A stretch of DNA of 41,749 nt, from assembly GCA_016209025.1 (NCBI GenBank), contig JACQWW010000079.1:1-41749 (forward strand). Direction: 5' to 3'. The notes below the pieces were generated by a model. The model searched no databases and was not told where the DNA came from. It saw nothing but the letters and a program-made list of their open reading frames with translations. Every line of letters starts with the position of its first letter. Position 1 is the first letter of the stretch. The translations under genes were made by a program, and so were the position numbers. Of this stretch, positions 18,193 through 34,971 are shown in pieces. The DNA comes from Elusimicrobiota bacterium. Its GTDB lineage: Bacteria > Elusimicrobiota > Elusimicrobia > JACQPE01.

Positions 18193-18229
18193 GCGCGTGC
18201 GTTTAATTTTTTGCGAAGCGAGGAATTCC

Positions 18230-18982
18230 ATGGCTGAAGAAGCGCAGCAAACAGCGATTCCTCGGCCAACCCCGAAGCTTAAGGCCATTCTTGCCAAGAA
18301 AATCGGCATGACCCAGGTATTTGATGATCGCGGCTTGGCGCACGGCGCCACCGAGCTGGCGGCCGGGCCGTGCCATGTCGCAGCCGTCAAGACGAAGGAT
18401 AACGACGGCTATACGGCTTTGACTTTGGGTTTTGACGGCATTGATGAAAAATCCGCGGGTAAACCTCTGTCAGGAATGTTCAAAAAGTCCGGCATTCCAC
18501 CCGTTTCCTTGTTGAAAGAAGTGCGGCTTAGCGGCATCGAGGGCTGGCAGCCCGGGCAAACGGTACAGCTCGATGGAATGTTTGCGCCGGGCGATTATAT
18601 TGATGTCTGCGGCGTTTCCAAAGGCAAAGGTTTTGCCGGCGGCGTAAAGCGATGGGGTTTCCACGGCGGACCAAAAACCCATGGCCAATCCGACCGTCAT
18701 CGGGCGCCCGGTTCTTTAGCGGCGCGGCGTTCCCTGGGCCGGGTCATGCCTGGAAAAAAGATGGCCGGGCATATGGGCGCCCGTAATATCGTTGTTCAAA
18801 AATTGGAAGTTTTAAAGGTTGACGGCGTCAACAACCGGCTTTTTATCAAAGGCGCCGTGCCCGGGGCGCCGGGCAATTATGTTTTGGTCAAAGAAACCGT
18901 CAAACGCAGAAAGCACCGCATAGAGGCTGCGCCGTCTCTCAAGGCATCGAAGAAAAGGAAGGCCGCTCCGGCTAAAAAATGA
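18230..18982 (+). CDS. rplC: 50S ribosomal protein L3
   Basis: 'ILAKKIGMTQVF', 'GVSKGKGFAGGVKRWGFHGGPKTHGQSDRHRAPGS'. ATG lies 6 nt after 'cgaagcgagg'. Confidence 0.93.
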   Translation: MAEEAQQTAIPRPTPKLKAILAKKIGMTQVFDDRGLAHGATELAAGPCHVAAVKTKDNDGYTALTLGFDGIDEKSAGKPLSGMFKKSGIPPVSLLKEVRLSGIEGWQPGQTVQLDGMFAPGDYIDVCGVSKGKGFAGGVKRWGFHGGPKTHGQSDRHRAPGSLAARRSLGRVMPGKKMAGHMGARNIVVQKLEVLKVDGVNNRLFIKGAVPGAPGNYVLVKETVKRRKHRIEAAPSLKASKKRKAAPAKK

Positions 18983-19003
18983 CGATAAACAAGAAGCAGG
19001 AAA

Positions 19004-19558
19004 ATGGAACTTGATATTCTCGATCTAAAAACAGGCGAGCCGAGCGGGCAAAAGGCGGTTGTGCCTGAAGGGCTGGCCGCGGTCAAGGTCAACATCGCTT
19101 TAATACATGAAACGGTTACGGCTTACGCAAATAATTGGCGGCGCGGGACACATTCGACTTTGACGCGCAGTGAAGTGCAAGGCGGCGGTAAAAAGCCGTG
19201 GAAGCAAAAGCATACGGGCCGGGCGCGCTCCGGTTCAAACCGGTCGCCGCTTTGGAGAAAAGGCGGCATTATTTTTGGGCCCAAACCGAGAGATTACAGC
19301 GTCTATCCGAGCCGGGCAAAGCGCCGGCTTTCTTTTGTCCAAGCCGTGGCCTGCCGCCTTGCCGCCGGCGCCGTCCTCCAGCTCCTTCTAGTATCGGCTT
19401 TAAACAAGGAATTTCTCCGGGCCTCGCGCAATCTTGAAGCCTTAAGCGTGCGGTCTTGCGAGACGATTTGCGCCGGAGATATTCTGGCGGCAAAAACCAT
19501 CTTGGCAACCGACAAGGCTTGGGCCCGGATGACCGAAGGACGGTTCAATGTCAACTAG
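19004..19558 (+). CDS. rplD: 50S ribosomal protein L4 (short: 184 aa)
   Basis: '[40 protein letters not shown]'. Confidence 0.9.
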
Positions 19559-19838
19559 CTACGGCTGGCCGCTGTCCGTGCCTCTGATCACGGAGAAAAG
19601 CACCGCCCAAAAAGAGGATTTTCATCAATACGCTTTTGTCGTGGCCAAAGATGCCTCGAAGGGGCAGATTGCTCGTGCCGTGGAGGCCGTATTCAAGGTG
19701 CCGGTTGTTCGTGTCAGGACGCTTGCGGTGCGCGGCAAGATGCGGCGTCTTGGCCGCAATCAGGGCCGGCTGGAAGACTGGAAAAAGGCCATTGTCACCA
19801 TTGCGGCGGACAAAAAAATAGATTTTGAGAAAACATGA
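19548..19838 (+). CDS. rplW: 50S ribosomal protein L23
   Basis: 96 aa between rplD and rplB: 'PLITEKST...[31 protein letters not shown]...WKKAIVT'. Confidence 0.92.
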
Positions 19839-19844
19839 CAAATT

Positions 19845-32541: not shown

Positions 32542-33597
32542 ATGACTGAGGCGCCGGTTCAAATGAGCAAGGAATTAATTTTTCCAACAAGAGTGAATTT
32601 TGACAAAGAGAAGCTGACCGACAATTATGGGCGTTTTACCGTCGAGCCTTTGGAACGAGGCTGGGGCTACACGATCGGCAATTCTTTGCGCCGCATTTTG
32701 CTTTCAAGCCTTGACGGCGTCGCCGTGACCGCGGTCAAGATCGCCGGGGTCCGCCACGAGTTTACGGCCTTAAAGGGCGTCAAAGAGGACGTGCTGCATA
32801 TTTTGCTTAATTTTAAGAAGCTCAGGCTCAAGCTTTTTTCCGATGGGCCGGAAATTCTTTATCTCCAAGCTGAAAAAAGCGGCGAGGTCAAGGCTTCGCA
32901 GATCAGGCAGACGCCTAACGTGGAGATTTTAAGCAAAGAATTGGCGATCGCTACGCTTGAGCCGGGCGCCAAACTGGATATCGAAATCGAAATATCACGG
33001 GGCCGCGGATACCTGCCGAGAGAGAGCAATCAACGCGAAGGCCGCGCCGCGGGATTCATCGCCGTTGATGCCTTGTTTTCACCGGTAGTCAAAGTCAATT
33101 ACGATGTCGAGCACGCCCGCGTCGGCCACATTACCGATTACGATAAGCTCCTTATTGACGTCTGGACGGACAGCTCGGTGACGCCGCCCGAAGCGGTCAT
33201 CAAAAGCCTCAAGATCCTTTCGGGCCTGGCCGGGACCCTGCTTGGGGCGTTGTCCGACGGCGGCAAGAAAAACAGCCCGGCCGCGGCTCCCGCGGCGGAC
33301 GAGGAGACGGCTCTTCATGATGTGACGGAAGAAATCGGCAAGACCAAGACATCGGATTATTCCCAGGCTTTAAGGGACCCCAAAATCCAGGAGACCTTGA
33401 ATCAGCCGATTGAAGCGCTGGAACTGGTCCCCCGGACCCTTAATTGCCTGAAAGTCGCCCACATCAAGATCATACGTGAATTAGTCCGCAAAACGGATGA
33501 AGAGCTTTTGGCGTATAAGAATTTCGGAGAGAAATCCTTGAACGAAGTCAAGGAAAGACTCAAAGAGCTGGGCTTAAATATCGGAATGAAAGCATGA
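32542..33597 (+). CDS. rpoA: DNA-directed RNA polymerase alpha subunit
   Basis: 'GRFTVEPLERGWGYTIGNSLRRILLSSLDGVAVTAVKI', C-terminal domain 'IEALELVPRTLNCLKVAHIKIIRELVRKTDEELLAYKNFGEKSLNEVKERL'. Confidence 0.96.
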   Translation: MTEAPVQMSKELIFPTRVNFDKEKLTDNYGRFTVEPLERGWGYTIGNSLRRILLSSLDGVAVTAVKIAGVRHEFTALKGVKEDVLHILLNFKKLRLKLFSDGPEILYLQAEKSGEVKASQIRQTPNVEILSKELAIATLEPGAKLDIEIEISRGRGYLPRESNQREGRAAGFIAVDALFSPVVKVNYDVEHARVGHITDYDKLLIDVWTDSSVTPPEAVIKSLKILSGLAGTLLGALSDGGKKNSPAAAPAADEETALHDVTEEIGKTKTSDYSQALRDPKIQETLNQPIEALELVPRTLNCLKVAHIKIIRELVRKTDEELLAYKNFGEKSLNEVKERLKELGLNIGMKA

Positions 33598-33956
33598 TTA
33601 AAACTTATGCGCGGCGCAAGCTCGGGGTCCGGCCGGCTCATCGCAAGATGATGATGAGACAGCTGGCTGTCAGCCTCATTCATCATGAAAAGATCACGAC
33701 GACCGGCGCCCGGGCCAAGGAGCTCAAGGTTTACGCCGAGAGAATGATTTCACGGCTGACCAGGCTCAAAGATCCCCTGCGGCAGGCCCGGCAAGCCGCC
33801 CGGTGGCTCGCCCCGAACGGCTTGGATGTGTCAAAAAAGCTTCGTGAGACAATCGTACCCCGCTACCGCGGCAAAACCGGCGGCTACTTAAGAATCACGG
33901 CCCTGCCGCCGCGCCGCTCGGACCGCGCCTGTTTGAGCCGGGTGGAACTGGTGTGA
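33594..33956 (+). CDS. rplQ: 50S ribosomal protein L17
   Basis: 'RKLGVRPAHRKMMMRQLAVSLIHHEKITTTGARAKELKVYAERMI', 'GGYLRI'. The ATG overlaps the rpoA TGA (ATGA). Confidence 0.94.
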   Translation: MIKTYARRKLGVRPAHRKMMMRQLAVSLIHHEKITTTGARAKELKVYAERMISRLTRLKDPLRQARQAARWLAPNGLDVSKKLRETIVPRYRGKTGGYLRITALPPRRSDRACLSRVELV

Positions 33957-33968
33957 AAATTTTTCAGG

Positions 33969-34002
33969 GTCTGACCTGTCCGACCTGTCGGACGCGTCCG
34001 AC
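33969..34002 (+). repeat. Family B 9-mer array B6, 4 units (rplQ | mreB gap)
   Basis: 'gtctgacct gtccgacct gtcggacgc gtccgac'. Confidence 0.9.
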
Positions 34003-34019
34003 GCGAAGCGAGGCCTGAT

Positions 34020-34971
34020 TTGTTGCACGGTTTTCTCGGGCTTTTTTCCAACGACATGGGCATTGACCTGGGAACGGCCAATACCCTTGTTTACGTAAAA
34101 AATCAAGGCATAGTATTGCGGGAGCCTTCGGTGGTCGCCATAGAAATTGAGAAACGGAGTCATCGCCGATTTTGAAGTCACCCAGGCCATGATCCGCCAT
34201 TTTATCCGCCGCGTTCACAACAGGAAAAGCCTCCTGCATCCGAGGGTCGTCATCGGGATACCTTCGGGCATCACCGAGGTGGAAAGGCGGGCGGTGCGCG
34301 ATTCCGCCCAGCAGGCCGGGGCGCGGGAGGTTTATTTGATCGAAGAGCCCATGGCGGCCGCCATCGGCGCCGATCTTCCGATCGAAGATCCCACGGCGAA
34401 CATGATCGTTGATATCGGCGGCGGCACCACGGAAGTGGCCATTATTTCGATGGGGGGAATGGTGGTCACTAAATCCATTGACGTGGCCGGCGACGAGGTG
34501 GATGAGGCGATCCTGCAGTATTTTAGGAAGCGTTACAACCTGCTTATCGGCGAAACGACGGCGGAAGACGTTAAAATTAAAATCGGTTCGGTTTTCCCTT
34601 TAGGCGAGGAAATGACGATGGAGGTCAAAGGCCGCGACCAGGTGACCGGGCTTCCGCGCACCATCACCATCACCTCCGAAGAGGTCAGACAGGCGCTTCT
34701 TTCGGTCGTTAAAACGATCGTAGATATGGTTAAATCCGCTCTTGAAGAAACGCCGGCCGAACTGGCCGCGGATTTAGTGGACCGGGGTTTGGTCCTGGCC
34801 GGTGGCGGGTCGCTTTTAAGAGGCATTCCGGAACTTATTTCCCGCGAAACGGATTTACCGGTCCATTTGACTCCGGAACCGCTTGATTGCGTCGTTTTGG
34901 GAACAGGCAAGTTTCTTGAAGAGCTCGAACGTTTTAATAACACAAGAAAGCGCGCATTTTTAGCGTCGTAA
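34020..34971 (+). pseudogene. mreB: Rod-shape protein MreB, split by an internal deletion of about 25-30 codons plus a frameshift (or an assembly error)
   Basis: The frame starting at TTG 34020 reads '[51 protein letters not shown]' and stops at 34173-34175. The next frame (track ORF 34147-34971) continues '(L)[19 protein letters not shown]...DIGGGTTEVAIIS...'. The conserved '...VGxEAKxMLGRTPGNIxAIRP' block between the two parts is absent. Confidence 0.7.

Follow-up and report, generated by a model that had tools for sequence, protein, structure and literature searches.

A recurrent module before gene starts

We analysed a 41,749-nt stretch of Elusimicrobiota DNA (contig JACQWW010000079.1 of assembly GCA_016209025.1; hereafter the window), in which the sequence CGAAGCGAGG recurs six nucleotides before the start codons of several genes, most of them for ribosomal proteins. 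Sequence comparison leads us to favour the view that CGAAGCGAGG-N6-start forms the right-hand end of a composite cassette lying between cistrons, and that it probably acts as the Shine-Dalgarno (SD) site of the downstream cistron. As an SD site the motif would be ordinary, and the interest lies in the conserved, portable frame of the cassette. What appears unusual is that a fixed, SD-bearing end of 13–15 nt and a stop-codon hairpin enclose hypervariable repeat hairpins, and seem to move with them between junctions of essential operons.

The genome to which the window belongs (G000) is a metagenome-assembled genome (MAG) of 2.53 Mb in 276 contigs, and is 81% complete. Its family comprises seven genomes, which is the whole order as sampled, and the relatives all belong to other genera.

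A search for AGCGAGG-N6-[AGT]TG gave six matches in the window, all on the plus strand, where 0.25 ± 0.59 were expected; none of 100 dinucleotide-preserving shuffles reached six. Five matches (at 18217, 24024, 26487, 30644 and 34007) stand at gene starts. The sixth, at 10381..10396 on the plus strand, falls within the rpoC coding sequence, and was judged a chance match and dropped from the feature. The 10-mer at four of the sites is CGAAGCGAGG. It is followed by aattcc and the ATG of rplC (18214..18232, supported by the pattern, homologue N-termini and duplex energy), by tttaag and the GTG of rpsE (26484..26502), by tgtaat and the GTG of rpmJ (30641..30659, supported in the same three ways as rplC), and by cctgat and the TTG of mreB (34004..34022, supported by the pattern and homologue alignment). 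At rplE (24018..24039) the 10-mer is CGGAGCGAGG, and the whole 13-mer, GAGCGGAGCGAGG, followed by cgtaag and GTG, fits the family-wide consensus. Family profiles identified the proteins encoded downstream of the five modules as L3, L5, S5, L36 and MreB. The five sites, with their constant spacing, were thus present and read as the original prediction had them.

Start codons were checked by aligning orthologous clusters from genomes of the same family, and against family profiles. The rplC ATG at 18230 gives the N-terminus MAEE.., compared with MAET.. or MSET.. in relatives. From the rplE GTG at 24037 the protein reads (M)AEKT, compared with MAEKT in G004 and MAEQT in G003; an in-frame ATG at 24016 has neither an SD (−1.7 kcal/mol) nor a counterpart in relatives. 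The rpmJ GTG at 30657 yields MKVRSS, the same as in relatives, at mreB the ATG of relatives falls on codon 1 (TTG, 34020), and the rpsE GTG at 26500 is the earliest start of its open reading frame (ORF). The three starts that had been placed by means of the six-nucleotide spacing (rplE, rpmJ and mreB) therefore match homologue N-termini, as do those of rplC and rpsE. The module can serve as a dependable marker of start codons, GTG and TTG included, where gene callers may extend or misplace a gene, as at rplE and rpmJ.

The original prediction had also linked the module to non-ATG starts. Such starts follow it at four of the five window sites, but the association is weak: they number seven of 13 in G000 and 13 of 32 in the family, set against a crude background of 28%, and with p = 0.02 (window), 0.04 (G000) and 0.075 (family) the excess of GTG and TTG is not robust.

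Two genes of the window showed other features at or after their starts. The true start of rplF is probably the ATG at 25501, rather than the upstream TTG at 25441 that opens its longest ORF. The mreB gene (34020-34971) runs in two separate frames (34020-34175, then 34147-34971), and compared with relatives it has lost about 87–88 nt (MreB profile positions 43–67) through a deletion and frameshift. It may be a pseudogene or reflect an assembly error in the MAG.

Predicted pairing with the 16S rRNA 3′ end

The 16S rRNA 3′ ends of G002, G003 and G006, members of the same family, are canonical (GGAUCACCUCCUUU, with a tail ending GGATCACCTCCTTT). In G000, AGGAG and GGAGG were about 8-fold enriched in the 20 nt 5′ of 2165 long-ORF starts, and the spacing of GAGG to long-ORF starts peaked at 4–10 nt. 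Because the tails of the relatives are canonical and AGGAG and GGAGG are enriched in G000, the canonical anti-SD is, as read from these sequences, in use in the lineage.

At all five window sites the GAGG core lies 6 nt from a start validated by homologues. When same-family tails were used for the comparison with the 16S 3′ end, the expected match was borne out: GAGG pairs with CCUC, and GAAG^GAGG is predicted to form an 8-bp helix with the canonical tail CCUCCUUU, in which the central C is bulged and the pairing mimics that of GAAGGAGG. The duplex of CGAAGCGAGG with GAUCACCUCCUUUC came to −8.1 kcal/mol, compared with −5.0 for GAGG alone and −8.7 for GGAGG. Duplex energies at the five sites ranged from −8.3 to −12.6 kcal/mol, similar to those at tuf, adk and rpoA; the lowest was that of the rpmJ site, where GAGGUG pairs over 6 bp with CACCUC. 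AGCGAGG came fourth when 105 7-mers of its composition were ranked for position 4–8 nt 5′ of candidate starts, with 4.2% against a median of 0.9%; the figure for AAGGAGG was 10%. The pairing and the placement together indicate that the motif is most likely a Shine-Dalgarno site. Its AG-C-GAGG arrangement, with the bulged C, offers a compact sequence for testing how much an SD helix tolerates.

Two other roles were considered and rejected. Sequestration or insulation of the SD by a hairpin was dropped, as predicted folds had no consistent pattern and accessibility was not above that of a shuffled control. Membership of a known RNA family, such as the autoregulatory leaders of ribosomal protein genes, found no support in the Rfam covariance models: neither the gathering threshold nor E ≤ 1 brought up any family at the five sites, and the sole Rfam matches were spurious ones to miRNA precursors on hairpins of another repeat family of the window, family A (GAATATT).

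Family A hairpins and short junctions are also accompanied by CGAGG-type SDs, at 23632-23646, 24971-24986, 25489-25503 and 31752-31765. Those of rplX (CGAGGcattccaATG) and rplF (CGAGGtattccaATG) are nearly identical.

A cassette from stop codon to start codon

Cassettes of G000 have three separable parts. The left module, TGAAAATTTT, holds or abuts the upstream stop codon and is often a full hairpin, TGAAAATTTT-N7-AAAATTTTC. The part in between, a hairpin of tandem repeats, is variable; it is built from GTCNGAC 9-mers (family B) in the window and from heptamers elsewhere. The right module has the consensus CCGAGCGNAGCGAGG and is separated from the start by 4–8 nt (mode 6).

Four of the five window modules are paired with a left module that overlaps or abuts the upstream stop. 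Before rplC it is the hairpin TGAAAATTTT-ACCCGGT-AAAATTTTCA, with the rpsJ stop inside it (18110..18136). TGAAAATTTT overlaps the stop of rplX at 23956..23965 and that of rplQ at 33954..33963, and its variant GAAAATTTT (30577..30585) begins 1 nt 3′ of the infA stop (TGA, 30573-30575). All four are on the plus strand. A cassette of the same frame lies between rpoC and rpsL (13097..13224, plus strand); its left hairpin is TGAAAATTTT-N7-AAAATTTTC, its middle is a hairpin of heptamers (TCGTTAG../..CGACCAA), and its right end reads CCGACGAGCGCCGCGAGGAGG, after which come cgtag and ATG. The junction before rpsE, only 23 nt long, may be a collapsed cassette, with AATTTTTAATTTCAAA lying 5′ of the module.

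Eight cassettes of G000 have a left TGAAAATTTT, seven with an exact second arm and one with a variant, and two of them (13097 and 18110) are in the window. All eight end in a purine-rich, SD-like site 4–8 nt before a start. AGCGAGG is present in four of these right ends, and the one at rpsL reads GCGAGGAGG. On other contigs the heptamer-array cassettes begin with a stop-overlapping hairpin of the kind found before rplC, TGAAAATTTT-N7-AAAATTTTC.

The left module can be read as a stop codon fused to the palindrome AAAATTTT, and ends six genes in the window (at 13097, 18110, 23956, 24637, 31314 and 33954). The loops of the left hairpins mostly prolong the stem (GCNNNGC or ACNNNGT), and the stem looks too weak for a terminator. 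A transposable element of the miniature inverted-repeat type was rejected: the left module is not the reverse complement of the right one, and visual inspection of the aligned copies showed no duplications at their flanks.

In three genera the conservation of the right module runs 8–9 nt past the SD core. The 5′ stretch, CCGAGCGNAGC, fits a mini-hairpin consensus, GCGNAGC (PMC13037366), and could be a site for an RNase, an RNA-binding protein or an enzyme acting on the cassette as DNA, with the SD a mere neighbour. The one variable position (A, G, C or GT) falls where GCGNAGC/GCGNNAGC permits variation, and the right ends hold GCGAAGC, GCGGAGC and GCCGAGC, which resemble sequences of the left loops. 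Against this, GCGAAGC is incomplete at two of the five window sites, where its first G is missing (aaaCGAAGC and gatCGAAGC), the 16S, 23S and 5S rRNAs contain no complement to the module of at least 7 nt besides the anti-SD, no Rfam family matched, and no candidate factor was identified. We regard a recognition site in place of an SD as unlikely; as a second function it would fit beside an SD.

Distribution in related genomes

The left hairpin was found in five of the seven family genomes (seven copies in G000, about 13 in G003, about 14 in G004, and one each in G001 and G006) and in none of the controls. In G003 and G004 its surroundings follow the same order: a stop-overlapping left hairpin, a locus-specific tandem-heptamer hairpin, (C)CGAGCGNAGCGAGG, 4–8 nt, and the start. 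This frame precedes rpsH, rpsM, rpsK, rplK, efp, rpsC, rplV, rpsN and other genes. The 13-mer pattern of the right module matched three times in G000, seven times in G003 and three times in G004, with no match in controls, and the spacing from module to start was 4–8 nt in about 30 cases from the three genera. Other families of the class gave 14 scattered matches, compared with five in the control, and those inspected were mostly not cassette-like.

The relatives' versions of the five window junctions are short and have neither arrays nor module. Examples are infA-rpmJ (TAAAAAatg), rpsJ-rplC (TAGAGTatg) and rplX-rplE (TGAAGGAAAAATTGatg), and in G002 the junctions are tight throughout the S10/spc/alpha ribosomal protein cluster, with no cassettes. 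Within this cluster the module stands before rplC, rplE, rpsE, rpmJ and mreB in G000, before rpsH, rpsM and rpsK in G004, and before rplV and rpsN in G003; no two of these genomes have a position in common. Since no positions are shared between genera, the module appears to have been gained lineage by lineage rather than inherited at each site. On these alignments the cassette has been inserted at gene junctions that differ from genus to genus, and at least three genera of the family carry it.

The original prediction looked for an enrichment of AGCGAGG-N6-[AGT]TG at gene starts across the genome. The outcome was mixed. AGCGAGG ranked high among 7-mers of its composition, as given above; however, the strict pattern matched 17 times in the 2.53 Mb of G000, which is about the chance level, and a looser pattern was barely above its reversed control. 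Six of the 17 matches lie in the window, which makes up 1.65% of the genome. As the genome-wide number is close to chance, the excess is local to the window cluster and the repeat cassettes, and the motif is not a general ribosome-binding site (RBS).

Relation of the module to the repeat arrays

GTCNGAC units with a 9-nt period numbered 32 in the window, with five expected. Four arrays, all on the plus strand, precede modules: four units at the rpsJ-rplC junction (18159..18192), four units and a degenerate GTCGGAT unit before rplE (23975..24017, the regular units ending at 24008), three units before rpmJ (30613..30637), the last of which overlaps the right-end variant CCGACGAtCGAAGCGAGG, and four units at the rplQ-mreB junction (33969..34002). 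The distance from array end to motif start is 21 nt at rplC, 12 nt at rplE (3 nt from the degenerate unit), 3 nt at rpmJ and 1 nt at mreB, in keeping with the claim that four of the five motifs lie shortly 3′ of such arrays. At rpmJ and mreB the final unit overlaps the right-end variant CCGACGAGCGAAGCGAGG, known from nusA. The rplC and rplE cassettes have in common a lead-in outside the repeat, CAAGAAC, and an identical order of units; the lead-in and first units of the rplE array are identical to the rplC copy at about 28 of 32 positions. The shared lead-in and unit order therefore point to copying.

The further claims, that the family B cassette has an SD of its own at its 3′ edge and that its insertion or expansion supplies a translation signal to the downstream cistron, held only in part. 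The SD-like placement and composition of the module at the edge of the repeats stood up, as did its position 3′ of family B arrays at the four window sites. The tie to family B did not. Only four of the 22 GTCNGAC arrays in G000 are followed by the module, all four in the window cluster, and the others precede ordinary and different SDs, such as that of tuf (aaaggagg). Among 301 genomes of the class, the combination of array and module occurs in G000 only. The module also follows unrelated heptamer arrays on contigs C40 (at glmS), C134, C178 and C228 (at rimP-nusA), it has no array at rpsE, and in the stretches of the ribosomal protein cluster examined in G003 and G004 no family B arrays were found, though the module was present. 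The module is not intrinsic to the family B element: most of the arrays lack it, and it occurs without them. An element that comes with the module plausibly supplies a translation signal, because the junctions that carry it are expanded in this lineage and tight in relatives, but such an effect would not be specific to family B.

Twelve loci combining an array with the module were found in metagenomes and set aside, being mostly chance matches in GC-rich DNA. One of them, on an unrelated contig (Ga0197143_1002877, at about 5900-6000 on the minus strand), has a 5-unit GTCNGAC array and then aaCGAAGCGAGGAGGtgaagatagctATG; it is the sole metagenome locus in which a 5-unit array is followed by CGAAGCGAGGAGG before an ATG. 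On this example, similar junctions may exist outside the family.

The independence of module and arrays bears on another explanation, in which the motif is simply the SD that this family prefers, evolved or kept at each junction by selection. Hairpins would then insert beside it, perhaps with the left hairpin or the gap between stop and SD as their target, and the element would bring no SD. Modules without arrays occur at rpsE in G000, at rpsK in G004, where the left hairpin abuts AAGCGAGG-tgtttt-ATG, at rplV and rpsN in G003, where bare modules stand in short junctions (rpsS-rplV is TGAtctccGAGCGCAGCGAGGatttctATG), and at a further G003 locus (L192). Conversely, arrays without the module include 18 of the 22 family B arrays, the 23S rRNA hairpins and the PF05635 cassettes described below, and CGAGG-type SDs are common in the cluster even after family A hairpins (rplX, rpsH, rplF and rpsD). 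Yet the identity between modules covers 13–15 nt (CCGAGCGAAGCGAGG), often reaching into the spacer, and goes far beyond what selection on an SD would account for. Cassette-free relatives likewise have no module at the same junction, and the differing positions in the three genera speak for gain and not inheritance. We therefore think it improbable that selection for a preferred SD alone accounts for the module.

Several observations weigh against the reading that we prefer, a cassette whose right end is an SD. Only positions 9–873 of the 16S rRNA of G000 are assembled and the 16S terminal motif was not found in its contigs, which means that the anti-SD is taken from relatives and from SD enrichment. 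The predicted SD helix depends on a bulged C, the conserved CCGAGCGNAGC exceeds the length that an SD needs, and the SD is predicted to be no more accessible than with shuffled upstream sequence. The strict pattern lacks genome-wide enrichment in G000. Left and right modules are also found alone, so that a single mobile unit is not demonstrated, and neither terminal inverted repeats nor target duplications were seen by eye in the aligned copies.

Related hairpins in rRNA and around PF05635 genes

The 23S rRNA gene of the window and its 3′ flank contain four heptamer-armed hairpins, at about 118–215, 900–985, 1585–1670 and 2900–2980, whose arms are GAAGTCT/AGACTTC and whose loop is A/T-rich. 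A PF05635-like ORF on contig C4 is bracketed by these arms too. G000 has six full and two partial matches to PF05635, the 23S rRNA intervening-sequence protein, and all six full genes (on C99, C68, C182, C102, C79 and C4; L194-L199) are bracketed by complementary heptamer or octamer arrays. The arrays belong to a different sequence family at each gene; that on C182 is GAATATT, as found between ribosomal protein genes of the window. Neither TGAAAATTTT nor the AGCGAGG module was found in the 23S hairpins or in the PF05635-flanking copies of G000. The SD module is confined to protein-gene junctions, which therefore argues that it is kept for translation.

This contrast also bears on the possibility that the motif is what remains of a selfish repeat and has no function, translation of the downstream genes depending on coupling or SD-independent initiation and the spacing being a by-product of the insertions that were tolerated. 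The hairpin cassettes do behave like dispersed repeats, and GAGG stands at 4–9 nt in only about 11% of 5′-most long-ORF starts in G000, which suggests that many genes may manage without a strong SD. A remnant would not be expected to keep a distance of 4–8 nt from validated starts in about 30 cases and three genera, nor to be missing from the same kind of hairpin in rRNA, and coupling is disfavoured across structured junctions of 63–117 nt. We consider this explanation very improbable.

Two further repeats of G000 were seen. Contig C86 has long GTCNGAC arrays of six and five units (3076-3355 and 3448-3654), which adjoin a weak PF05635-like match, one of them apparently inside an open frame. 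Another dispersed repeat, with more than 15 copies on contigs such as C6, C49, C99, C113 and C220, contains ...CCCCGAAGCTCTGCGAAGCGGGG...; it surfaced among one-mismatch matches to the 10-mer and is unrelated to gene starts.

Proposed mechanism

If the module is the SD-bearing end of a cassette, the events may have been as follows. The module would be copied into junctions with, or beside, a repeat hairpin. Insertion or expansion of a structured cassette would separate cistrons that relatives translate by stop-start coupling, and folding of the hairpin, or cleavage at it, would probably contribute to breaking the coupling. The module at the right edge would then restore independent binding of the 30S subunit for the downstream cistron: GAGG would pair with CCUC, and pairing of the conserved AG, which lies 5′ of the bulged C, would lengthen the helix to about the strength of GGAGG. 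The additional conserved bases, CCGAGCGNAGC, which fit GCGNAGC, could be a mere part of the copied unit or could serve in processing or recognition. Such a scheme would explain how ribosomal protein operons, in which junctions normally depend on tight stop-start coupling, contain bulky repeat hairpins without silencing of the genes downstream, each such junction having an RBS of its own.

More tentatively, the cassette might be a self-sufficient 'junction kit', a dispersed element with a stop-codon hairpin on the left and on the right a dedicated SD, perhaps joined to a GCGNAGC recognition site. Such a kit could enter even highly essential operons without polar effects, and its conserved non-SD part would be recognised by a specific factor for mRNA processing or for mobilisation of the element. 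We hold this possible but doubtful.

Comparison with known systems

In its complementarity to 16S CCUC, its position 4–8 nt before the start and its predicted duplex of about the strength of GGAGG, the GAGG of the module resembles any SD sequence. It differs in that a fixed sequence of 10–15 nt is common to many genes, that a C interrupts AGGAGG, and that the motif goes with repeat cassettes and is no consensus of the whole genome.

The bacterial interspersed mosaic elements (BIMEs) of E. coli, built on repetitive extragenic palindromic (REP) sequences, and the pneumococcal BOX elements, boxA-boxB(n)-boxC, are mosaic repeats of intergenic regions, conserved at their ends and variable in the copy number of their middle. 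The cassettes are likewise modular and dispersed in intergenic or intercistronic positions of operons, and have the same plan of conserved ends and a variable-copy middle. Here, however, the left end is the upstream stop and the right end an apparent SD, so that the cassette spans exactly from stop to start, and the middle is a locus-specific hairpin of tandem heptamers or nonamers. Cassettes of 23S intervening sequences and PF05635 genes share complementary heptamer arms, and repeat families, with the hairpins of the window, but have neither the TGAAAATTTT module nor the AGCGAGG module.

In plastids, the intercistronic expression element (IEE) is described (PMC2230500) as a short intercistronic sequence from which the downstream cistron comes to be expressed from a processed, stable and translatable mRNA. 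The likeness is one of function only, the expression of a downstream cistron. The sequence is unrelated and the system different, and processing, known for the IEE, is hypothetical for the cassettes.

Of the published repeats that stand directly before starts, the closest are those of the TAACTGA family, heptamer direct repeats found upstream of genes in Beggiatoaceae, cyanobacteria and Bacteroidetes, next to the start codon (PMC4679880). They mostly occupy the position of the RBS, and an SD is present in about 10% of the intergenic regions that contain them. Like the arrays described here, they are short forward tandem repeats just before starts, those of essential genes included, with a strain-specific distribution; conserved end modules and hairpin arms, which the cassettes have, are absent from them (PMC4679880).

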